DNA from: Shigella phage KRT47
Length of the DNA: 64,000 nt
Sequence record: MN781580
Reading direction: 5' to 3' (one strand)
Under the pieces are notes generated by a model. It had not been told where the DNA came from. It ran no database searches and was given only the letters and a program-made list of their open reading frames with translations. Shown here piece after piece: positions 2,167 through 39,058 of this stretch (positions are counted from its first letter, which is position 1; every line of letters begins with the position of its first letter). The translations under genes were made by a program, and so were the position numbers.

Positions 2167-3182
2167 TGTGTTGCCTCTACATATAGCTGATTCGCATATT
2201 GAATAAGTGCTTCACGGTCAGAATCAGTGATGTCTGGAATTGCATTAATGTATTCTTCCATTAACGTCTGAAGAGATTGAACTTCAACTTCTTCACTGTC
2301 ATCTGACTCGACAGAGTTATCAATTTTTGACACAACTCGTAATGAATGCACAACTTTTTCTAGTTCAGATTCGAACTTCGTCAGATTTTTGTCTACCTCA
2401 GTTACTATAACACGTACTGATAGATTTGTAAAATCTTTATAGTCAATTTTTCCTTTAAATGGATAATGAATTCTACGATGCCAGGTAGTATTGTTTGGAA
2501 TAAATTCCATTCGTTCTGTTTCTGTATCAAACATCCAGAACCCGCGAGGGTCATTCTCGTCACCTGCAGTTAGTGTCCATGGTGTCCCAATATATCTGAC
2601 GTTTGCAGCCTCAGAAATAGTATGGAAGTGACCAGACCACACCTCTTTATAAGTCTTAAGGAAATCAGGTTCAAGACCGTGAGATTTCATTCCTTTATAA
2701 AAATAAAATCCATTCAGTTCCCAGTGACCAACACAAAAAGAAGCAGAAGAAGTTTTTATGTGCTCGAGAATTTCACCAGTATTTTCTTCACACATCCAAG
2801 GAATTAAATCAATTAAACATCCGTCAAAATCTACTGTAGTAGGCTTATCATATACTTTAACATTAGGATATTTAGCCAAAAGCTCAGTAGAGGCATTTGG
2901 AGTTAAAGTATTTTTAAAGTGCATATCATGGTTTCCTACAACAGTATGCAGGGTAATACCAGCATCATCAAGCATTTGAACTATTTCACGAGCGAACTCC
3001 ATAGTTTTATGTGTGATTGCTTTTCGCACATCAAAAATATCACCATATTGAATCCAGGTAGTAATTCCATTTTTCTTAGAATATTCTATTGCTTGTTTAA
3101 TTCCATCTAACTGAATGGATTGAACCCACTCATCATCGGCTTTAACGCCTAAATGCCAATCACCTAAATTTAAAATTTTCAT
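2163..3182 (-). CDS. 47: recombination nuclease subunit gp47 (SbcD/Mre11-like phosphoesterase)
   Basis: 339 aa; N-terminal metallophosphatase motifs (DWHLG, GDIFD, GNHD); length equals T4 gp47. Confidence 0.93.
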   Translation of the reverse strand: MKILNLGDWHLGVKADDEWVQSIQLDGIKQAIEYSKKNGITTWIQYGDIFDVRKAITHKTMEFAREIVQMLDDAGITLHTVVGNHDMHFKNTLTPNASTELLAKYPNVKVYDKPTTVDFDGCLIDLIPWMCEENTGEILEHIKTSSASFCVGHWELNGFYFYKGMKSHGLEPDFLKTYKEVWSGHFHTISEAANVRYIGTPWTLTAGDENDPRGFWMFDTETERMEFIPNNTTWHRRIHYPFKGKIDYKDFTNLSVRVIVTEVDKNLTKFESELEKVVHSLRVVSKIDNSVESDDSEEVEVQSLQTLMEEYINAIPDITDSDREALIQYANQLYVEATQ

Positions 3183-3345
3183 ATATCAAGAACCGTCATT
3201 GAAATGCAAAATAAAATTATTGAAATAAATCCATCTGGAGTGCTAAAGAACCCAATCCAGCATGCTCTAGTGAATAGATAAAATGCAAGAAAAAGTATCA
3301 CATATCCAAGAAATATCATTATATCAAACTCCGTATAAAGCTAAA

Positions 3346-3357
3346 GGGCCGAAGCCC
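3346..3357 (-). terminator. GC stem-loop with UUCG-type loop downstream of a-gt
   Basis: gggccgaagccc palindrome directly 3' of the a-gt stop on the minus strand. Confidence 0.5.
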
Positions 3358-3358
3358 T

Positions 3359-4561
3359 TTATTTTGTAATAATGTCAAACTGTTCTTTAAAGCAGAAGCT
3401 TGAATCTTGATGCTGATACAAAAATTCATATGCTTTTTCTCGCTCACGGTCATAAAGAGTTCGGTCAGATGACAGTTCTTTAATACGTTCAAATGTTGAT
3501 TCCATATCATTTTCATCAAACCAAATGATACCGCTATCATGCGAGGTCAAAGGAGTATTATCAACACGGAATTTTAAATTTTCGCCAGTAGATTTCCAAA
3601 ATACCGGAATTGTTCCACATGCACCAAGCTCGAGATGAGTATATTCTAAAGAACGTTGTAGATATTTTTTATCCAACTTACTCAGCTGATAACCAAATCC
3701 GGATTTACTCATGCGTTCAAGCATTTCGCTATTTACATAACGGTCGAGAATTTGCGTTGGCAAATTAGGAGCAATTTTAATTTGGTCTACTTGATGAAGA
3801 CGATAATACTCGTATGGAATTCCTTTTTCTTTAATAGGAATGAACGCTGGAGAACGTTCCAGACCTTCCATAATAGTACTTAGTCCTGCAGGTTTAAGAT
3901 GTTTTTCGTGAAAATCAAACATCTGATAAAAACCTTTCCATGTAGTCGTACGACCAATCCAACGGTTGATATTCATGTTAATTTCAGAAACATCTTTCCA
4001 GTAGGTTGATCGAACCTTCGCAATATCCATAGGAGGCTGAAAGTTATATATGGTCGGTGCTTCTTCAATATCATCAAACAGAGAAACAGTTTCTGGATAC
4101 CACTCTTTCATCAGAACTTTATTAAAATCACCATTATCAGAATGGCTAAAAATAACATCAGCTCGACGAACAGTTTCTTCTAATCCCAAATTTCGACGCA
4201 AAGAAAGAGAAGAATGGTCATGCTGATAAACTACAACACGAACCGAAGGTTTAATGTTATCAATAATTTTTTTATAGTTATTAATAGTGTCTTCTTCAAC
4301 CGAAGTAGCAGGAACTGAATTGATAATTAGAATATCACAATCATTTACCAGCTTAAGTGTTTTATCATATTCTTTTGCCAATAAAACCGGAATTGAAAAT
4401 GATTTATAATCATGCGCGCAATTACGAGTAAATGATTTATCTTTAGCATAAACCAAAGTCACTTCATGACCATTTTTAATAAACCAATCACGTTGCTCGA
4501 GTGAGAATTTTGTTACACCACAACCTTCAAGACCTCGAGCCATAAAAATACATACTTTCAT
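3359..4561 (-). CDS. a-gt: DNA alpha-glucosyltransferase (glucosylation of hydroxymethylcytosine)
   Basis: 400 aa; N-terminus MKVCIFMARGLEGCGVTKF matches recalled T4 alpha-gt; same length. Confidence 0.88.
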   Translation of the reverse strand: MKVCIFMARGLEGCGVTKFSLEQRDWFIKNGHEVTLVYAKDKSFTRNCAHDYKSFSIPVLLAKEYDKTLKLVNDCDILIINSVPATSVEEDTINNYKKIIDNIKPSVRVVVYQHDHSSLSLRRNLGLEETVRRADVIFSHSDNGDFNKVLMKEWYPETVSLFDDIEEAPTIYNFQPPMDIAKVRSTYWKDVSEINMNINRWIGRTTTWKGFYQMFDFHEKHLKPAGLSTIMEGLERSPAFIPIKEKGIPYEYYRLHQVDQIKIAPNLPTQILDRYVNSEMLERMSKSGFGYQLSKLDKKYLQRSLEYTHLELGACGTIPVFWKSTGENLKFRVDNTPLTSHDSGIIWFDENDMESTFERIKELSSDRTLYDREREKAYEFLYQHQDSSFCFKEQFDIITK

Positions 4562-4585
4562 TTAATATCCTCTTTGTTTTGGTTT

Positions 4586-4611
4586 ATTTTACCAAAAATT
4601 TATAAAGCAAT
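4586..4611 (-). promoter_or_regulatory. candidate MotA-dependent middle promoter for a-gt
   Basis: minus strand reads ATTGCTTTA (MotA-box-like), 11 nt, TAAAAT, about 25 nt upstream of the a-gt ATG. Confidence 0.4.
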
Positions 4612-4614
4612 ATA

Positions 4615-4628
4615 GGAGCCGAAGCTCC
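4615..4628 (-). terminator. GC stem-loop (ggagccgaagctcc)
   Basis: perfect palindrome with cgaa/uucg loop in the intergenic region. Confidence 0.45.
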
Positions 4629-4801
4629 TATCCGCATAATACGCCATACAGAGGCTCGTTAGAACTTTTAAATTTTATGCGCTTATATTTTATAGTTCCT
4701 TCTGCTTTAGCTTTATCATGAGACTCTTTAAAGCGTCTCATCATTTCTACTTTAGAGGAACGAATTTTATTATAATCTATTTCAGAAGTCTGGGTGTTCA
4801 T
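4628..4801 (-). CDS. hypothetical small basic protein (57 aa, below ORF-track cutoff)
   Basis: ATG at 4801 to TAG at 4628 on minus strand, translation MNTQTSEIDYNKIRSSKVEMMRRFKESHDKAKAEGTIKYKRIKFKSSNEPLYGVLCG; fills an otherwise empty 240-nt gap. Confidence 0.35.
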   Translation of the reverse strand: MNTQTSEIDYNKIRSSKVEMMRRFKESHDKAKAEGTIKYKRIKFKSSNEPLYGVLCG

Positions 4802-7336: not shown

Positions 7337-7669
7337 TCAGCTGTAACGATAACACTCGTTTGATTTACGTTTAGCAACTCGTTGAGAAGTATTATAATCA
7401 AAATCATCGTCAATGTAAACTGATTTTTTCAACTTTCTTACTTCACCACGTAATTGGCGATTTAGCTCATCTTTAACTTCTGAATCAATGCCTTTCATTC
7501 TACGCCATTTATCTGAGCGAAAAATGTTTTCAACCATATCTTTATGACTTACCCCATCAGGGGCTTTACGCTTTCCGAAATAGTCATAATCACGAACTTT
7601 CAAGTCTTTACGACGATACGTTTTACCCATGGAGTTTAATTTCCTTAGCAACTGAACTAAATGCAGCAC
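7337..7669 (-). CDS. hypothetical basic protein
   Basis: 110-aa ORF, K/R-rich. Confidence 0.55.
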   Translation of the reverse strand: MLHLVQLLRKLNSMGKTYRRKDLKVRDYDYFGKRKAPDGVSHKDMVENIFRSDKWRRMKGIDSEVKDELNRQLRGEVRKLKKSVYIDDDFDYNTSQRVAKRKSNECYRYS

Positions 7670-15488: not shown

Positions 15489-15518
15489 ATTATACCACAT
15501 CCTTGTGGCAAAGTAAAC
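15489..15518 (-). promoter_or_regulatory. early (sigma70-type) promoter
   Basis: minus strand GTTTAC, 18 nt, TATAAT. Confidence 0.65.
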
Positions 15519-18473: not shown

Positions 18474-18503
18474 ATAGTACCACAGAGGAATGGTCTTGTA
18501 AAC
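18474..18503 (-). promoter_or_regulatory. early promoter within a repeated cassette
   Basis: minus strand GTTTAC, 18 nt, TACTAT; flanked by conserved ACAACTATCAACT. Confidence 0.65.
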
Positions 18504-18909: not shown

Positions 18910-19878
18910 TTATTTCAGAAGAGTAACCTCAGCGATTTCTTCCCAACCGTTTTTGTCGGTCATAATAAAGTCAGCAAGATAAAGAGCAGTACGCAGTGAA
19001 ACATTGCGTAAACGATTAACATTGACTTTCATCCATGATAATGCTTTATAAGTTTCTTCATCAGAAAGACCGCGCTTTTGCATCATGTCAGTTGAAAGAA
19101 TAACATCTTCAACCCTGACCATAATTTCTTCATTAGTGTGAACACCCAAATCCAAATAAACTGAGCGGGACACTAATGCTTGTAAGTGTGGGGCAAGTTT
19201 AGTACCACGGTCTAATTCGCGGTCAATGTCAACGTTTGTGATAAAAACAATCGTTCCTTTAAATTCAAACTCACGCTCAATGCCTTTTTCTTCTAAGTAA
19301 GAAGATGCAGTGCTCCAGCAGACTTTGCGGGTCTCTCCGGTGTCCAGAGCAGCTTTCAGAAGATTAAGAATGTCCATATCAGAGAAAACATCCACATCAT
19401 CAATCAAAAGGACAGAATTCTCTTCACGATTATTCCAAAGCTGCTCATAAAGACCGATACCAGAGATTTTACCGTTAATGCTTTTATACTCAATGTATCC
19501 AATATCATTTGCTTTATTTAAAGCTTTATCTAAAGAATACGTTTTACCAATACCTGCTGCTCCCGAGATAATTAATGAACGAATGTTTCCGTTAATAATA
19601 CCATTCGTCATCATTCCCATAACATTAAATCTTTTATTAATGCGGGTTTTCATATCTTCATATGATTCTTTAACTTCTTCAACTTTTACACCATCATATG
19701 AAATGTCTGATTTGTAAACCCAAACACCGCGACGTTTACCGTCAATTTCAACAAAAACTTTACCATCTCCTTGTGCATCTACTGGAGCATTATCTGGGAA
19801 CCATTCGCCTAAGAGCTCAAAAGTTCCAGAGATTTCTTTACCGAAGTAGATACCCTTATTGATAGTTACAGTTTTCAT
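18910..19878 (-). CDS. P-loop NTPase (AAA-like ATPase)
   Basis: Walker A SGAAGIGKTYS and Walker B-like VLLIDDVD; start set to MKTVTINKG Met at 19878 after promoter/RBS. Confidence 0.7.
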   Translation of the reverse strand: MKTVTINKGIYFGKEISGTFELLGEWFPDNAPVDAQGDGKVFVEIDGKRRGVWVYKSDISYDGVKVEEVKESYEDMKTRINKRFNVMGMMTNGIINGNIRSLIISGAAGIGKTYSLDKALNKANDIGYIEYKSINGKISGIGLYEQLWNNREENSVLLIDDVDVFSDMDILNLLKAALDTGETRKVCWSTASSYLEEKGIEREFEFKGTIVFITNVDIDRELDRGTKLAPHLQALVSRSVYLDLGVHTNEEIMVRVEDVILSTDMMQKRGLSDEETYKALSWMKVNVNRLRNVSLRTALYLADFIMTDKNGWEEIAEVTLLK

Positions 19879-19912
19879 TTTATTCTCCAAATCCGTATCA
19901 GTTGATAGTTGT

Positions 19913-19942
19913 ATAGTACCATAAAGCTTTATGCTTGTAAAC
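19913..19942 (-). promoter_or_regulatory. early promoter within a repeated cassette
   Basis: minus strand GTTTAC, 18 nt, TACTAT. Confidence 0.65.
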
Positions 19943-19973
19943 AACTTTGTGAAAAATTTTTGAAATAAAAAAA

Positions 19974-19991
19974 GGGAGCCCGAAGGCTCCC
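19974..19991 (-). terminator. intrinsic terminator
   Basis: gggagcc-cgaa-ggctccc hairpin followed by a U-run on the minus strand, right after the stop of ORF 19994..21007. Confidence 0.65.
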
Positions 19992-19993
19992 TA

Positions 19994-21007
19994 TCATTTA
20001 TAATAACTTCGGTGGTTTTCAAGATAAACCTTCTCAAGGAAGTCATCCCAGAAACTCATGTCTACTTTTTGCTGCATACCGTTCTTAGAAGCTTCAGTAG
20101 ATGCTGCTTCTACTTGATCAACCACATCTTCCAAAAACTCTTGAACCGTTTTAAATGGATGTTTACCTAACTTCACGTCGAGAATAAAGGGAGCATCTTT
20201 GAGTGGATAAATCAAGTCGCCAGTTTTGTAAATTTCCAATAGTTGAAGTCCACCACGACAAGCATGACTCAGAGCTTTCCAATCAATACCTTCATTAGCT
20301 TCGGCTTTACGAGCACGTTCACCATATTCAGCATCTAATTTGTTCAGTGACTGCTTAAGCTCAATAAGAGAAAGCGTTGTCTGATATTTACGACCCAATA
20401 CAGTGTAGAACGTTTGTGGACCTGTTTTCTCATGATTATGGAACACCCATTCACAGAATTCGTTTTCTGGAAGACGATGCTTAATATCTTCAACTTTAGT
20501 GCGACGCTGCTTAATAGAACCATCTTCTTGGTAATCAACCCATTGCTCAGGGATTTGATTAACTACTTTCAATACATCGCGTAATGCAGCCAAACGAGAA
20601 CCCTTGACACCGTATTTAGAAGCTTGCTTGCGAACATATCCTAAATAGGATTTCATGTTAGTCGTATAAAAACGAGAACGGTTGTCTTGAATAAACTTCC
20701 ACACGTCAGGCAAATCAGATTTAACCACTAGTTCAGGTGGAGTGTGAAGCATATCCAATGCTACAGTTTCACCATCTGCTGCTAATTTAAAGAAATATTT
20801 AAGACTGTATAGTTCATGGTCAATATCATCTTTAGTGTTTTTAGATGATGTGTTATTAGTGTTTTTACTCATGTGCTCTTTGACATTTCCGATAAGAATA
20901 TCACGAGCAGGAGGAACAAAAATTTCTTTAAAATCTACATCAGATTCTGGGGTAGAAGTTCCATAAAGATGACTACCAAAATAGCTTTTCATTACTGTTT
21001 TCATCAT
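19994..21007 (-). CDS. nucleotidyltransferase-fold protein (pol-beta/CD-NTase-like motif)
   Basis: 337 aa; N-terminal GS-x10-DVD motif (YFGSHLYGTSTPESDVDF) and a later acidic DDIDHE segment. Confidence 0.7.
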   Translation of the reverse strand: MMKTVMKSYFGSHLYGTSTPESDVDFKEIFVPPARDILIGNVKEHMSKNTNNTSSKNTKDDIDHELYSLKYFFKLAADGETVALDMLHTPPELVVKSDLPDVWKFIQDNRSRFYTTNMKSYLGYVRKQASKYGVKGSRLAALRDVLKVVNQIPEQWVDYQEDGSIKQRRTKVEDIKHRLPENEFCEWVFHNHEKTGPQTFYTVLGRKYQTTLSLIELKQSLNKLDAEYGERARKAEANEGIDWKALSHACRGGLQLLEIYKTGDLIYPLKDAPFILDVKLGKHPFKTVQEFLEDVVDQVEAASTEASKNGMQQKVDMSFWDDFLEKVYLENHRSYYK

Positions 21008-21465
21008 TCAGCCTTATATTCAATAACAGGACATACTTTAGCTTTACGAGCTTTTAAAAATTCAACGATAATCGATTTCTTGGGTTGAATAGGAGGTAAA
21101 CCTTTATACGCCCTATCAATATTTTCTATGTGTAAAGCATAATCCTTTTTCCATTTATAATCTTTATATTTTTCATGCAAATGTGCAGGAATAACAAATG
21201 AACCAATAATAAGTAAAACAAGCAAAATGGCAAGTATAAATGCTGATGGAATAAGAGTCCATAAACTACCAAAAATAAGCCATTTCTGTATGATTTCTGC
21301 ACAGATAATAGTTAGACCTGCGAGTATAGTACATCCGAAAAAAGAAACGAAAAATGTAGGAATAACAACAGACCAAAAATATGCACACAGTGTCTTAGGT
21401 CGTTTCCATTCATCATTAAACATTTTGAATAATTTATAGTGCCAAGAGTTTTCATTAATAATCAT
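21004..21465 (-). CDS. integral membrane protein
   Basis: 153 aa with at least three long hydrophobic segments. Confidence 0.7.
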   Translation of the reverse strand: MIINENSWHYKLFKMFNDEWKRPKTLCAYFWSVVIPTFFVSFFGCTILAGLTIICAEIIQKWLIFGSLWTLIPSAFILAILLVLLIIGSFVIPAHLHEKYKDYKWKKDYALHIENIDRAYKGLPPIQPKKSIIVEFLKARKAKVCPVIEYKAE

Positions 21466-21467
21466 AA

Positions 21468-21989
21468 TTATCCTTTCATTGAAGGTGTAACAGTTGTTAA
21501 ATACTTAATCATAGCTTCAGCTTCTGATTTTGATAATGAAATTTCTCCATTGTTTTGACGAATAGAAATAAAATCCGGATGACGGTCACCACCAGCTTTT
21601 AAAATACACATATAAGTATCAGTTTCATCTTCAATATCTGAAATGATTGAAGCAGTTCCGCATGAATGTGGTTTTTGATAAATCAATGCAGCTTTTCTTC
21701 CACCGTTTGACTGTTCATAAACTTTTAACACATCAAACAAATCACTTCTTTTATCAATAGCTAAGATGTTGTTTTCATCTTCAATGTTAAATCCTTCGGA
21801 TACTTCATAAAGTGTCACCCATAAATCACCGATGTCAATAACAGCATTTCCTTTTCCACGACTTTCAAGAATATGACAAATTTTCTTGATTTCGTCATAA
21901 CTCATTTTAATAATATCATCTCCTTGAATAAGGAAGATGTCATTTTTAAATTTAACGCGAATTAAACCACTTCCACTTGAAATAAACAT
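21468..21989 (-). CDS. hypothetical protein (paralog pair member B)
   Basis: 173 aa; C-terminus SKSEAEAMIKYLTTVTPSM resembles the C-terminus of the neighbouring ORF. Confidence 0.65.
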   Translation of the reverse strand: MFISSGSGLIRVKFKNDIFLIQGDDIIKMSYDEIKKICHILESRGKGNAVIDIGDLWVTLYEVSEGFNIEDENNILAIDKRSDLFDVLKVYEQSNGGRKAALIYQKPHSCGTASIISDIEDETDTYMCILKAGGDRHPDFISIRQNNGEISLSKSEAEAMIKYLTTVTPSMKG

Positions 21990-21995
21990 ATTTCC

Positions 21996-22553
21996 TCACT
22001 TTGAAATCATAGTTGGAATGACAGAATCAAGATAAGTCTTTAGCGCAATGGCTTCGTCTTTGGTAAATGTGACAATATGTGATCGAAAATCGTCAATTTG
22101 GCGAATAGTTAAGACATCTCCCTCTTCATAACATTTTGATACATTTAAAAGAGTTTCATCATTCTGATTGCAATCGTTAGTAATAATAGCATTGCAATTT
22201 TTGAGCCATTTTAAACTATGTTTTCTTTCATTAGAATAATAAAAATATTTAATCTTAGCTATAAAACTATCCCAATGAATAACTGATAAACACATTGACT
22301 CACTTTTAATATTAAATCCTGGGCATGAAGAATAAAAATGAATTTTGTGCTCATCATTGATGCTTACTATTTTATCAGTATAAGGATATTCAATTTGGGT
22401 TAAATGAATGATTTCATTAGGCGTAAAATACAGCATATCGTCTTCTTGCGTCAAACGATACATGTTATTTACTTTTTCTATAGCCAATTCACCAAAAAGC
22501 GGACTAACTTCTAATACTAATCGTTTCATATTGATTCTCTTCGACTCACTCAT
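21996..22553 (-). CDS. hypothetical protein (paralog pair member A)
   Basis: 185 aa; C-terminus TKDEAIALKTYLDSVIPTM. Confidence 0.65.
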   Translation of the reverse strand: MSESKRINMKRLVLEVSPLFGELAIEKVNNMYRLTQEDDMLYFTPNEIIHLTQIEYPYTDKIVSINDEHKIHFYSSCPGFNIKSESMCLSVIHWDSFIAKIKYFYYSNERKHSLKWLKNCNAIITNDCNQNDETLLNVSKCYEEGDVLTIRQIDDFRSHIVTFTKDEAIALKTYLDSVIPTMISK

Positions 22554-22688
22554 AATTACATACTCCTTTGAATAATATCAATAATGTTGTTCACCAGATT
22601 ATAAGTAAACATCGGGTGATAATATTGAATCATCACATACACAACAAACAAAATTTTCATTCTCTTCTCCTTGGCAGTTGACAAGATT

Positions 22689-22718
22689 ACTATACCATAA
22701 CCTTGCCAACTTGTAAAC
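22689..22718 (-). promoter_or_regulatory. early promoter
   Basis: minus strand GTTTAC, 18 nt, TATAGT. Confidence 0.55.
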
Positions 22719-22720
22719 CA

Positions 22721-22894
22721 TTAAATGACGTTTTCAATAAAATTCTGAAGCTTTGTGTGAGCATCAACCATGATTTTCATTTCTTCCTTTGCGAAAGCTG
22801 TACCTCTTTCTCGAGCAGAATACTCATAGTCAGAAACTGCATTAGCATATTCTTCAATTAGCTTCATTAAAAACATCTGCTTTTCAGTTTTCAT
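22721..22894 (-). CDS. hypothetical small protein (57 aa, below ORF-track cutoff)
   Basis: ATG at 22894 preceded by AGGTGG; translation MKTEKQMFLMKLIEEYANAVSDYEYSARERG... Confidence 0.4.
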   Translation of the reverse strand: MKTEKQMFLMKLIEEYANAVSDYEYSARERGTAFAKEEMKIMVDAHTKLQNFIENVI

Positions 22895-23078
22895 TATTCC
22901 ACCTAATCATTTCAAGATATTGAACTAACTTAGCTTTGGATTTATCCAAATCTCTTTTAGCTGCTTCTATACCATCGTATGAGTATCCTTCACAATGCTC
23001 AACTGCCAATTGGTATGAATCTATTTCAATATCACGTGCTAATTTAATGATTTTTTCAAACTGTTCGCGTGTTAACAT
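22884..23078 (-). CDS. hypothetical protein
   Basis: 64-aa ORF. Confidence 0.6.
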   Translation of the reverse strand: MLTREQFEKIIKLARDIEIDSYQLAVEHCEGYSYDGIEAAKRDLDKSKAKLVQYLEMIRWNNEN

Positions 23079-23080
23079 AC

Positions 23081-23263
23081 TTAAACTCTCGTATTATGAT
23101 CGATAATTTCATCAAGAAACATATCTAAAGCTTCTAAAGCATTATCAACTTTAGCTTCAAATTCTTCAATACCTGATAAGGCAAAGTTAACGCGTTCCTC
23201 ATCTGCTTTGCGAATTAAAGCTACCAATTCTTTAATTTTATCTGCTTGTTCGATACTAATCAT
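23081..23263 (-). CDS. hypothetical small protein
   Basis: start at MISIEQADK Met giving TAATG stop-start overlap with upstream gene. Confidence 0.5.
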   Translation of the reverse strand: MISIEQADKIKELVALIRKADEERVNFALSGIEEFEAKVDNALEALDMFLDEIIDHNTRV

Positions 23264-23479: not shown

Positions 23480-23509
23480 ATAGTACCACAGCTCAAACGG
23501 AAAGTAAAC
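23480..23509 (-). promoter_or_regulatory. early promoter within a repeated cassette
   Basis: minus strand GTTTAC, 18 nt, TACTAT. Confidence 0.65.
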
Positions 23510-23524
23510 CGGTAAAATGAAAAA

Positions 23525-23542
23525 AGTCTCCCGAAGGAGACT
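23525..23542 (-). terminator. intrinsic terminator
   Basis: agtctcc-cgaa-ggagact hairpin followed by a U-run on the minus strand. Confidence 0.6.
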
Positions 23543-23546
23543 AATG

Positions 23547-23933
23547 TTATTCGAGGGAAAGAAGATACTTACTCTGGTAAAACATTCCAGTAATATCATC
23601 TATCGTGCTTTGGATGGCTGGAGGCATTTCTTTATAAATGCTGTTAGATTGGTCTAGTATGTGATCAATCATTTTAATTGTGTCGGTAGGAAGTTTACTG
23701 GCATCTGGAATTGAAGGCGTGTATTTTCTACCAGAATACCCCAAATATTGCTCACCAAATTTATCAATCAAATCTGGCAACTCGGAGAAAATAAAATCGT
23801 ATGCTTTGTGTCTAGCATAACTTTTAGTTTCAAAATGCGCAGAATGAAAATAAGCTTGTGCAGCCATTAATAAACCTAAGTATTCATCTGCCTTTGAAGG
23901 TTTTCCACTTTGTGAAAAGTCGCTGAATTTCAT
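23547..23933 (-). CDS. hypothetical protein (positional equivalent of T4 rI.-1)
   Basis: 128-aa ORF immediately downstream of rI. Confidence 0.65.
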
Positions 23934-24223
23934 TCAGTCTCCAATTTAATGTTCATAATTCTAGCGTATGATTGTGCCATCTCCGCGCCTCGCTCTATAC
24001 ATTCAAAATCGGAAGAGCACGGGTCATTTTTATAAGTCGTTCGCATAAAACTATAGAACTGTTCAGATGATTCTACGCTTTTATTTTCAAAAAGCATATA
24101 AACGTGTCTAATACCAGATTCCATAAATTTATCAAAATGAGGATCGACATTCGCTTCAATCGGTGGAGATAAAGCAAACGCTAATCCTAGCATGGCAAAT
24201 AGTGCCGTTGCTTTTAAGGCCAT
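23930..24223 (-). CDS. rI: lysis-inhibition regulator rI (signal-anchored periplasmic protein)
   Basis: 97 aa; N-terminal hydrophobic signal MALKATALFAMLGLAFALSP; matches recalled T4 RI. Confidence 0.85.
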   Translation of the reverse strand: MALKATALFAMLGLAFALSPPIEANVDPHFDKFMESGIRHVYMLFENKSVESSEQFYSFMRTTYKNDPCSSDFECIERGAEMAQSYARIMNIKLETE

Positions 24224-24490: not shown

Positions 24491-25072
24491 CTAACCGAGC
24501 TTTTTAGTTAATTCATTCCAATGTTTTCTGCACAAAGAAACATAAATTTCATCACCAATACAGATTTGATTACCTTCTTTAACTGGTGTTCCATCTTCCA
24601 TTAATCGAGCTGTCATAATAGCTTTTTTACCACAATGACAAACTGCTTTTAGTTCAATAAGTTTATCTGCAATCGCCAAAAGTTCTTTAGAACCTTCAAA
24701 TAATTTTCCAGCGAAATCAGTCCTTAGTCCATAAGCCATAACAGGAACATTATATGTATCAACAATTCGGCTTAATTGATGCACCTGTTCAGTTTTTAAA
24801 AACTGAGCTTCATCTACAAATACACAATGAATATCTTTTTGTGCTTCAGCCCATTTATAGAACTCAAAAATATCCATATCATCCGTAATAATATTCGCTT
24901 CCTGCTTAATTCCAATGCGAGAAACGACTTCACAGACAGAATCGCGAGTATCAATAGCAGGTTTAAGAACTAATACACCCATTCCGCGTTCTTTATAATT
25001 ATGCGCAGCAGTCAAAAGAGAAGCAGATTTTCCAGCATTCATTGCTGCATAAGTAAAAATTAAACTCGCCAT
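24491..25072 (-). CDS. tk: thymidine kinase
   Basis: 193 aa; Walker A AMNAGKS; C-terminal zinc cysteines; T4 Tk length. Confidence 0.9.
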   Translation of the reverse strand: MASLIFTYAAMNAGKSASLLTAAHNYKERGMGVLVLKPAIDTRDSVCEVVSRIGIKQEANIITDDMDIFEFYKWAEAQKDIHCVFVDEAQFLKTEQVHQLSRIVDTYNVPVMAYGLRTDFAGKLFEGSKELLAIADKLIELKAVCHCGKKAIMTARLMEDGTPVKEGNQICIGDEIYVSLCRKHWNELTKKLG

Positions 25073-27675: not shown

Positions 27676-27705
27676 ATTATACCACAGTCAAGAGGAAAAG
27701 TAAAC
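27676..27705 (-). promoter_or_regulatory. early promoter for regB
   Basis: minus strand GTTTAC, 18 nt, TATAAT, followed by AGGAG RBS and the regB ATG. Confidence 0.7.
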
Positions 27706-34908: not shown

Positions 34909-34938
34909 ATAGTACCATGGAAGAACGGGGATGTAAAC
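34909..34938 (-). promoter_or_regulatory. early promoter within a repeated cassette
   Basis: minus strand GTTTAC, 18 nt, TACTAT. Confidence 0.65.
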
Positions 34939-37024: not shown

Positions 37025-37100
37025 TGGTCGAGGCAGTAGGGATCGAACCTACGACCTAGGACTTAGAAGGTCCTTGCTCTTCCTTCTGAGCTATGCCCCG
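37025..37100 (-). tRNA. tRNA-Arg (anticodon TCT)
   Basis: 76-nt cloverleaf on minus strand; anticodon loop CTTCTAA; T-loop GGTTCGATCC; CCA encoded. Confidence 0.85.
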
Positions 37101-37104
37101 TAAT

Positions 37105-37180
37105 TGGGGTGACCGATGGGAGTCGAACCCATGACTACGAGAATCACAATCTCGAGTTCTACCAACTGAACTACGGCCAC
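37105..37180 (-). tRNA. tRNA-His (anticodon GTG)
   Basis: 76-nt cloverleaf; anticodon stem CGAGA/TCTCG with loop TTGTGAT; discriminator C; CCA encoded; no encoded G-1. Confidence 0.7.
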
Positions 37181-37294
37181 ATTAATACCTACTCCAACAA
37201 TCAAGATGTCTTCACACGAAATTAAGAGAAGAGTGATCAGTTCAACCCCGATAATCGCGTCAAGTAGATATTAATGTGACAGTTGTCACAAATT

Positions 37295-37369
37295 TGGCGG
37301 ACGTGATAGGATTCGAACCTATAACCAATCGCTTAACAGGCGATCGCTCTGCCATTGAGCTACACATCC
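37295..37369 (-). tRNA. tRNA-Asn (anticodon GTT)
   Basis: 75-nt cloverleaf; anticodon stem ATCGC/GCGAT with loop CTGTTAA; T-loop TTCGAAT; CCA encoded. Confidence 0.85.
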
Positions 37370-37373
37370 AAAT

Positions 37374-37460
37374 TGGTGGGGAGTGATGGAGTCGAACCAC
37401 CCGAGTCGCAATGACAATGAATTTACAGTCCACACCGCTACCTCTACGGGATAACTCCCC
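37374..37460 (-). tRNA. tRNA-Tyr (anticodon GTA), long variable arm
   Basis: 87-nt type II structure; acceptor GGGGAGT/ACTCCCC; anticodon loop CTGTAAA; CCA encoded. Confidence 0.8.
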
Positions 37461-37469
37461 AAATTAATT

Positions 37470-37544
37470 TGGTGGCCCTGGGTGGAATTGAACCACCATC
37501 TGGCGATTATGAGTCGCTTGCTTGAACCTTCCAGCTACAGGGCC
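37470..37544 (-). tRNA. tRNA-Ile2/Met (anticodon CAT)
   Basis: 75-nt cloverleaf; anticodon loop CTCATAA; abuts tRNA-Thr as in the known T4 Thr-Ile dimeric precursor. Confidence 0.8.
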
Positions 37545-37545
37545 T

Positions 37546-37621
37546 TGGTGCTGATTGACGGAATCGAACCGCCGACCTTCTCATTACAAGTGAGTTGCTC
37601 TACCTACTGAGCTAAATCAGC
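37546..37621 (-). tRNA. tRNA-Thr (anticodon TGT)
   Basis: 76-nt cloverleaf; anticodon loop CTTGTAA; CCA encoded. Confidence 0.85.
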
Positions 37622-37626
37622 AAAAT

Positions 37627-37716
37627 TGGCGGAGGCGATAGGATTTGAACCTATGAGTCGCCGGAGCGACTGCCGGTTTTCAAGACCGGTGCATTAAACC
37701 ACTCTGCCACGCCTCC
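37627..37716 (-). tRNA. tRNA-Ser (anticodon TGA), long variable arm
   Basis: 90-nt type II structure; anticodon stem CCGGT/ACCGG with loop CTTGAAA; variable-arm hairpin GTCGC/GCGAC. Confidence 0.85.
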
Positions 37717-37718
37717 AG

Positions 37719-37792
37719 TCTCCATACAAGGATTTGAACCTTGGACCTCCTGATCCCAAATCAGGCGCTCTACCAAACTGAGCTACACGGAG
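37719..37792 (-). tRNA. tRNA-Pro (anticodon TGG), CCA not encoded
   Basis: 74-nt cloverleaf; anticodon loop TTTGGGA; 3' end abuts tRNA-Ser (dimeric precursor arrangement). Confidence 0.8.
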
Positions 37793-37802
37793 TAAATTAA
37801 AT

Positions 37803-37876
<74 letters not shown>

Positions 37877-37881
37877 AAATT

Positions 37882-37968
37882 TGGTGCGAGAAGTGGGACT
37901 CGAACCCACAAGGAAATCATTCCGCAGCATTTTAAGTGCTGTGCCTTTACCAATTTGACCATTCTCGC
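37882..37968 (-). tRNA. tRNA-Leu (anticodon TAA), long variable arm
   Basis: 87-nt type II structure; anticodon stem CAGCA/TGCTG with loop CTTAAAA; CCA encoded. Confidence 0.85.
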
Positions 37969-37969
37969 G

Positions 37970-38042
37970 CTGGGAATAAAGGACTCGAACCTTTGCATCC
38001 TGGAATCAAAATCCAGTGCCTTACCAACTTGGCTAATTCCCA
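37970..38042 (-). tRNA. tRNA-Gln (anticodon TTG), CCA not encoded
   Basis: 73-nt cloverleaf starting with U1-A72 pair; anticodon stem CTGGA/TCCAG with loop TTTTGAT; abuts tRNA-Leu. Confidence 0.8.
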
Positions 38043-39028: not shown

Positions 39029-39058
39029 ATAGTATCACAACTAAAACCCTATGTAAAC
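39029..39058 (-). promoter_or_regulatory. early promoter within a repeated cassette
   Basis: minus strand GTTTAC, 18 nt, TACTAT. Confidence 0.65.

Follow-up and report, generated by a model that had tools for sequence, protein, structure and literature searches.

Two diverged MobD.1-family genes at an early-transcribed accessory locus of Shigella phage KRT47 and the predicted PUR-like fold of their products

Phage T4 has a counterpart of the locus treated here, in which the gene for the HNH homing endonuclease MobD sits between nrdC.11 and mobD.1 (PMC2988022); T4 tolerates deletion of everything from nrdC.11 to mobD.3 (PMC9825161). For the mobD.1 product (UniProt Y05I), full-text literature searches with MobD.1 and y05I returned no functional study, and one review merely names the gene. 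In the GenBank record of phage T6 (MH550421), the gene corresponding to one of those described below is noted as 'hypothetical protein similar to mobD.1; RB32ORF097c' and the next one as 'replaces mobD; RB32ORF096c'. Here we analyse a stretch of 64,000 nucleotides from Shigella phage KRT47 (sequence record MN781580), called the window throughout, in which an earlier note had singled out two open reading frames (ORFs) as a tandem paralog pair, lying where T4 carries mobD yet without a visible endonuclease motif, together with two small ORFs upstream. Our analysis shows an early-transcribed, dispensable accessory locus of T2/T4/T6-type Tequatrovirus with two diverged copies of MobD.1, a feature that is ordinary for T-even phages; the locus is called dispensable because the nrdC.11-mobD.3 region is deletable in T4 (PMC9825161) and because phage SV76 carries broken copies. 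The family, the duplication, the 'replaces mobD' relation and the two small genes were already known from Pfam, PHROGs and GenBank notes. The note had the region right, and its implied puzzle over the mobD site has a simple answer already on record in T6. The small additions made here are the three-repeat PUR-like reading of the proteins, a stub ORF retained by T4, and a conserved association with a membrane-protein gene; the region being dispensable in the laboratory, the finding matters little as it stands.

Both ORFs of the pair lie on the minus strand and encode proteins of 185 and 173 amino acids, which BLASTP aligned over their full length (26% identity over 175 amino acids, E=4e-9). The related C-terminal tails that had drawn attention to them are indeed the best conserved part, with 47% of the last 19 aligned residues identical compared with 22-28% for the three segments that precede them, but the statement that the proteins differ elsewhere was wrong, and the evidence for a paralog pair is stronger than had been thought. 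The same two Pfam domains, PF24449 (T4_y05I_N) and PF24448 (T4_y05I_C), cover both proteins end to end in N-to-C order with E values of 2e-21 to 9e-39, scoring 132.6 and 76.2 bits in the 185-residue protein and 112.2 and 82.6 bits in the 173-residue one (gathering cut-offs 24.9 and 27, respectively), and both match phrog_1502 (E=5.6e-80 and 1.4e-66). With 86% identity to T4 MobD.1, the same position and the same upstream mobD.2, the 185-residue protein is the ortholog of T4 MobD.1. The 173-residue protein has both domains at full length but is only 26-28% identical in sequence (27% in the comparison with T4 MobD.1), which makes it a paralog and not an ortholog, and it is absent from T4. From these sequence comparisons, both ORFs almost certainly belong to the MobD.1/Y05I family, and the alignments indicate that they are full-length paralogs. 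At the DNA level, the sole trace of the paralogy is a 21-nucleotide match over the GFNIE motif (21775-21795 versus 22300-22320).

Compared with T6 and phage R5505, both genes are under purifying selection, with ratios of nonsynonymous to synonymous substitution rates (dN/dS) of 0.13-0.23 for MobD.1 and 0.14-0.24 for the paralog (0.02-0.04 for nrdC.11, given for comparison). The paralog was found by tblastn at at least 90% identity in about 430 phage records, among them T6, whose gene is 93.6% identical to that of the window. A word-indexed homolog search returned close relatives only, and an exhaustive representative search among 1.84 billion proteins showed the family to be small (20 clusters at 50% identity), with a tail consensus of (T/S)KxEAxA(L/M)xxYLxxVxP(T/S)M.

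For the 2.3 kb around the pair, 509 genomes of T4-like phages matched at 90-99% identity; Escherichia phage UFV13, Shigella phage Sf25 and phage HY01, each a Tequatrovirus, ranked first. Every gene of interest is on the minus strand, in the order known from T4: tk, rI.1, rI, rI.-1, mobD.5 to mobD.1, and nrdC.11. Comparison of the gene order with T4, HY01, T6, JK45 and JS98, which the earlier note had proposed among T-even relatives, placed the MobD.1 family between mobD.2 and nrdC.11. As to the slot of mobD, (i) most Tequatroviruses lack mobD and hold the second MobD.1 copy and a membrane-protein gene in that slot, (ii) T6 carries this same gene pair, RB32ORF097c and RB32ORF096c, at the same position as the window, (iii) JK45, a divergent Tequatrovirus, and the Dhakavirus JS98 have a single MobD.1-type gene, with the membrane-protein gene and then nrdC.11 directly behind it, and (iv) T4 has mobD in the slot, a gene unrelated in sequence to the pair and absent from the window. 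T6 and R5505 differ from the window and from T4 in two extra ORFs between mobD.2 and mobD.1 (locus positions 497-959), RB14ncORF103c (61 amino acids) and RB14ncORF102c (88 amino acids). An Rfam scan of the whole window matched the tRNA cluster only and nothing in the locus, a repeat search over 20900-23100 found no inverted repeats, and none of the five locus proteins had a match in PADLOC-DB at E values up to 1.

The boundary between the T4 and the window arrangements is sharp. Downstream of the mobD.1 stop codon, T4 equals the window across the Shine-Dalgarno sequence and on through the six codons that open the 173-residue gene, ATGTTTATTTCAAGTGGAA; from there the two diverge completely until homology picks up again at the nrdC.11 start codon. 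In T4, the beginning of the paralog, namely its ribosome-binding site and those six codons, is joined to cassette sequence to give a stub ORF of 23 codons, MFISSGTDMCYKCKAKLNETKNQ plus stop (NC_000866, 7206-7277, minus strand; equivalent to window 21971-21989), whose TGA overlaps the ATG of mobD; this suggests that translation of mobD in T4 is coupled to the remnant start site of the paralog. Because T4 keeps this stub, the mobD cassette must have replaced the second copy and the membrane-protein gene and not the reverse, and, since T4-type MobD at at least 95% identity occurs in only 47 records (paralog, about 430), the T4 arrangement is the minority state. The second copy itself is an addition specific to the T2/T4/T6 group, given that JK45 and JS98 have a single copy. 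These comparisons strongly indicate a gain of the second copy in the T2/T4/T6 group, followed by the mobD replacement in T4. The locus thereby offers a clear case of resident genes displaced by a free-standing homing-endonuclease cassette, which left a six-codon stub apparently translationally coupled to the endonuclease gene.

The reading in which the two ORFs are left over from a homing endonuclease or cooperate with one, as degenerate mobD-type genes or as a module associated with an endonuclease, draws on position only, T4 having mobD at the site, and we consider it exceedingly improbable. No locus protein had a Pfam match to an HNH or GIY-YIG domain, and tblastn with T4 MobD found nothing resembling it in any reading frame of the whole window (best E=9.4), in agreement with the absence of endonuclease motifs reported before; on these two results the reading was rejected. 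Moreover, both ORFs are intact, under purifying selection, members of a separate family and different in predicted fold, and the stub held by T4 places the direction of change the opposite way. How the second copy arose is less clear-cut: its clade is 20-30% identical to every MobD.1-type clade, which are 31-48% identical to one another, and the copy may stem either from an old or fast-evolving duplication or from import. Import by recombination from a distant T4-like phage, which would make the pair xenologs and not tandem duplicates, is a possibility we entertain tentatively. It would account for the paralog clade being about equally distant from every MobD.1-type clade, and it suits a locus that is a recombination hot spot, as seen in chimeric and fused metagenomic proteins (P0011, P0016 and P0021, below), in the extra ORFs of T6 and R5505 and in the mobD replacement. 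Yet faster evolution after an in-place duplication gives the same distance pattern, the homolog searches found no donor lineage with the paralog type as sole copy, and every close relative of the paralog belongs either to that one Tequatrovirus group or to a metagenome without known context.

Metagenomic proteins show several rearranged forms: P0011 joins the N-terminal part of MobD.1 to the C-terminal part of the paralog, P0016 a divergent N-domain to a C-terminal segment nearly identical to that of MobD.1, and P0015 the MobD.1 N-domain to unrelated sequence, while in P0021 a deletion connects residues 1-50 of MobD.1 with the C-terminal half of NrdC.11. Recombination has clearly taken place inside this plastic locus. 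In phage SV76 (locus 2501-3580), MobD.1 and a second copy (53% identical, of a divergent type near protein P0010) are split into several short coding sequences, which are either pseudogenes or assembly errors.

The proteins were folded with a 14-sequence alignment, and the models, both confident (pLDDT 83.7 and 86.4), have the same topology of three units, each made of four or five beta strands and a closing helix; in the paralog these span residues 2-43, 49-95 and 101-167. Structural look-alikes include the Whirly proteins p24 and StWhy2, trypanosome MRP1/MRP2, an SsgA-like protein, Borrelia Pur-alpha, PC4/Sub1, YdbC and the PC4 homolog of phage T5; Janowski and Niessing review this fold class as 'PC4-like' (PMC7549692). 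Foldseek searches with the models gave nothing significant, the family profile had zero matches among PDB sequences at E values up to 10, and neither protein matched Pfam PUR at E values up to 1. Within the family, hhalign showed that the last two strands and the helix of repeat I resemble those of repeat III (probability 78.5%, E=1.7e-5), which is consistent with an internally repeated protein. The models make a PUR/PC4-like fold of the MobD.1 family quite probable. The resemblance to PC4-like proteins is structural only and depends on predicted models: Whirly, MRP1/MRP2, PC4/Sub1, YdbC, the T5 homolog and AcrIIA22 are alike in fold, none being a sequence relative of the MobD.1 proteins. Those proteins are typically basic on the sheet face. 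Pur-alpha (PURA), with its three PUR repeats, shares the predicted layout; the MobD.1 proteins differ in a third repeat of five strands and in being acidic, and structural alignments with Pur-alpha give 3-12% identity. Convergence is as likely as common descent as the source of this likeness, and we regard both ORFs as predicted PUR-like or PC4-like in fold and not as PUR proteins. The Pfam label 'y05I-like putative transcription factor' may go back to this likeness in structure.

At the syntenic position in Tegunavirus (Yersinia phage fHe-Yen9-01) and Winklervirus (Kosakonia phage Kc304), we found stand-alone proteins of 74-87 residues that consist of the C-terminal repeat only. As these two lineages have no other form of the family, the N-terminal two-repeat domain appears to be an optional module. 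According to the review of the PC4-like class, one repeat by itself is very unlikely to fold (PMC7549692), and the stand-alone proteins would have to pair in order to do so.

The neighbouring 153-residue protein has two hydrophobic spans, a basic C-terminal tail, an isoelectric point of 9.3 and a match to phrog_944. Its homologs lie directly 3' of the gene with the y05I_C domain in JK45, JS98, fHe-Yen9-01 and Kc304; across five T4-like lineages the protein measures 142-161 residues and always adjoins that gene on its downstream side, with the stop codon of the one overlapping the start codon of the other in two lineages, and T4 alone among the lineages examined has lost it. Two motifs are conserved in it, SWHYKL...LCxYFW towards the N terminus and F(I/L)KA(K/R)K(S/A)KxCPxIE towards the C terminus. 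The conserved pairing of the two genes suggests a functional module, as yet unstudied.

Our best overall explanation, to which we assign a probability of roughly 0.55, combines the locus history with the predicted layout of the proteins. Repeats I and II would form an intramolecular PC4-like 'type I' domain, a variable module and the presumed target binder. Repeat III, single and unable to fold alone, would most likely join the repeat III of a second chain to make up a 'type II' domain, with the conserved C-terminal tail as the swapped helix that mediates dimerisation; the proteins would then act as homodimers and possibly, in phages with two copies, as MobD.1/paralog heterodimers. Pur-alpha dimerises through its repeat III and is the only known protein joining an intramolecular type I and a dimer-forming type II domain (PMC7549692). 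We rate dimerisation through repeat III, for which the stand-alone proteins with that repeat only give indirect support, at even odds. By fold alone, the most likely ligand would be single-stranded DNA or RNA early in infection, and phage proteins of the PC4-like class do bind or act on DNA, such as the T5 homolog and AcrIIA22, a PC4-like DNA nickase (PMC8545432); we consider a nucleic-acid ligand somewhat less likely than not. Two properties of the proteins weigh against such a ligand: both are acidic (isoelectric points 5.0 and 5.7, net charges -7 and -5), and the side of strand 2 of repeat I that is presumed to be exposed is basic in the paralog clade only (R11, K13, K15), being acidic or neutral in the MobD.1-type proteins, so that no conserved basic nucleic-acid surface is evident. 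What the explanation provides is a testable structural hypothesis for an otherwise uncharacterised family of T4 early proteins: a PUR-like protein of three repeats, in which the conserved C-terminal helix would mediate dimerisation.

The main rival reading keeps the family identity but takes the proteins for protein-binding adaptors, acidic scaffolds of the SsgA/SsgB kind that would act with the adjacent membrane protein and might be tethered to the inner membrane or capture a host protein. SsgB, which has this fold, recruits FtsZ and is itself localised by a membrane protein (PMC8061694), and the homolog of the membrane-protein gene lies directly 3' of the y05I_C gene in every lineage examined but T4. 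The SsgA/SsgB (SALP) family differs in being trimeric, restricted to actinomycetes (Actinobacteria) and FtsZ-recruiting. Conserved synteny alone is no proof of physical interaction, and most of the top structural matches, namely Pur-alpha, Whirly, MRP1/2, PC4, YdbC and the T5 homolog, bind single-stranded nucleic acids (PMC7549692). T4, moreover, retains MobD.1 despite the loss of the membrane-protein gene, and MobD.1 therefore cannot strictly depend on that protein. We hold the adaptor role to be only slightly less probable than a nucleic-acid ligand. Beyond the dimer explanation favoured above, a bolder extension, doubtful as we consider it, would make the MobD.1 family a phage counterpart of Pur-alpha and the second protein type with type I and type II PC4-like domains, in which the two copies heterodimerise via their repeat-III helices and pair differently charged N-terminal domains into a clamp for nucleic acid or host factors together with the membrane protein. 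If true, such a clamp would work, for example, in early host takeover or counter-defence.

Table 1. Positions of the genes and signals of the locus in the window, and of homologs in comparison loci
Feature	Position	Strand	Remarks
tk	24491-25072	-	order as in T4
rI	23930-24223	-	rI.1 on one side, rI.-1 on the other, as in T4
Terminator of rI.-1	23525-23542
Early promoter of the mobD.5-mobD.4-mobD.3-mobD.2a operon (predicted)	23480-23509	-	GTTTACTTTCCGTTTGAGCTGTGGTACTAT; just downstream of the rI.-1 terminator
mobD.3	22884-23078	-	after mobD.5 and mobD.4
mobD.2a	22721-22894	-	intact form, 57 amino acids; DUF7438, phrog_2758
Early promoter 5' of mobD.2 (predicted)	22689-22718	-	GTTTACA-N17-TGGTATAGT; TTTACA-17-TATAGT with TG, 10/12 matches; conserved in T4
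mobD.2	22556-22660	-	34 amino acids; phrog_3515
mobD.1	21996-22553	-	ortholog of T4 MobD.1, 185 amino acids
MobD.1, conserved C-terminal helix and tail	22008-22064	-	TKDEAIALKTYLDSVIPTM; helix of repeat III; model helices 165-178 and 180-183; most conserved block of the family alignment
Second MobD.1-family copy	21468-21989	-	173 amino acids, RB32ORF097c type
Paralog, conserved C-terminal helix and tail	21477-21533	-	SKSEAEAMIKYLTTVTPSM; model helices 154-167 and 169-172
Segment swapped in T4 for the mobD HNH cassette	about 21005-21970	-	divergence from T4 begins after ATGTTTATTTCAAGTGGAA
Membrane-protein gene	21004-21465	-	153 amino acids; phrog_944
nrdC.11	19994-21007	-	followed by nrdC.10
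C-terminal-repeat-only protein, Kosakonia phage Kc304 (L008)	4001-4225		74 amino acids; sole form of the family there
C-terminal-repeat-only protein, Yersinia phage fHe-Yen9-01 (L011)	2492-2716		74 amino acids; sole form of the family there
Membrane-protein homolog, comparison locus L003	3050-3523
Membrane-protein homolog, comparison locus L004	3018-3470
Membrane-protein homolog, Kc304 (L008)	4225-4710
Membrane-protein homolog, fHe-Yen9-01 (L011)	2716-3144

The early transcription of the locus was read from the T4 early-promoter signature GTTTAC-N16-18-TANNNT, of which the whole window holds 18 sites against 2.4 expected, 16 of the 18 on the minus strand and most with TGGTAYWAT (for instance 7391-7420, 15489-15518, 18474-18503, 19913-19942, 27676-27705, 34909-34938 and 39029-39058). 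A generic sigma-70 scan found 21 sites against 18.3 expected in shuffles, and because this is no enrichment the promoter calls rest on the T4-specific GTTTAC...TGGTAYWAT motif. By its position, the predicted strong promoter 5' of mobD.2 would serve mobD.2, mobD.1, the paralog and the membrane-protein gene. The gene mobD.2a appears from the sequence to be the last of the operon starting at the mobD.5 promoter, transcription from which has been reported in T4 (PMC1702504), and to have no promoter of its own; the earlier description of both small ORFs as promoter-driven thus fits mobD.2 and not mobD.2a.

Both small ORFs exist as described, with 34 and 57 codons, and both are real, known genes, named in T4 and T6; that they had been missed by the ORF track reflects their small size and not novelty. 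The gene mobD.2, directly 5' of mobD.1, encodes a product 82% identical to T4 MobD.2 and matching phrog_3515 (E=3.6e-20), and has matches in 824 phage records, in which identity falls to about 50% in T4-like phages of Klebsiella, Enterobacter, Erwinia and Kosakonia with the length kept. The peptide, which had been called strongly hydrophobic, is only moderately so: its grand average of hydropathy is +0.70 and its best 19-residue Kyte-Doolittle window scores 1.05, below the 1.6 expected for a transmembrane helix, and what the genera have in common is its polar C-terminal half, PxFTYNLVNNxIDxxQ. It had no match in the local copy of Pfam; the homolog in Kc304 carries PF26864 (Phage_T4_Y05J) in the precomputed table. 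The gene mobD.2a, which follows mobD.3 and overlaps its end by 11 nucleotides, encodes a DUF7438 protein (Pfam PF24219, E=3.5e-16, 59.8 bits, positions 1-56 of 57; phrog_2758, E=3e-35) with matches in 643 phage records. That these are untranslated chance ORFs in AT-rich DNA is very unlikely. Both are very short, and many GenBank records have no feature for mobD.2, but length and frame are kept across genera at 45-56% amino-acid identity, dedicated families exist for both (those named above), mobD.2 has a GGAG Shine-Dalgarno sequence at proper spacing, 8 nucleotides upstream, and dN/dS in the more diverged pairs is 0.17-0.34 for mobD.2 and 0.07-0.21 for mobD.2a (0.63 for mobD.2 against T6, from four substitutions, and 0.45 for mobD.2a against R5505, from three).

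In the T4 RefSeq genome, mobD.2a (NC_000866, 8050-8166) has lost 1 bp compared with the window, CAGCTTTT-CC against CAGCTTTCGC, and this deletion shortens the product from 57 to 38 residues. The intact 57-residue form is present in T4 isolate MT984581 and in nearly all relatives, and the frameshift is either a change in the laboratory strain or a sequencing error. A GGAG motif lies within the Shine-Dalgarno sequences of both mobD.2 (22664-22667) and mobD.1 (22563-22566); GGAG is the core of the target of the RegB endoribonuclease in T4 early mRNAs.

The promoter site at 19913-19942 falls within the 3' end of nrdC.11 and precedes what is likely the true start of nrdC.10, and the 378-residue ORF at 18910-20046 is probably over-extended at its 5' end. 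In the RefSeq records NC_000866, NC_027349, NC_031103 and others, homologs of mobD.1 and mobD.4 carry the product name 'molybdopterin-guanine dinucleotide biosynthesis protein MobD', which appears to stem from the gene symbol alone; in the same records a 59-residue ORF is labelled 'helicase loader' and rI.-1 'starvation-inducible transcriptional regulator', and these labels are annotation artefacts or unverified. Elsewhere in the window, 10 tRNA genes are clustered on the minus strand at 37028-38042 (Rfam RF00005, 59-74 bits), two more than the eight tRNA genes of T4.

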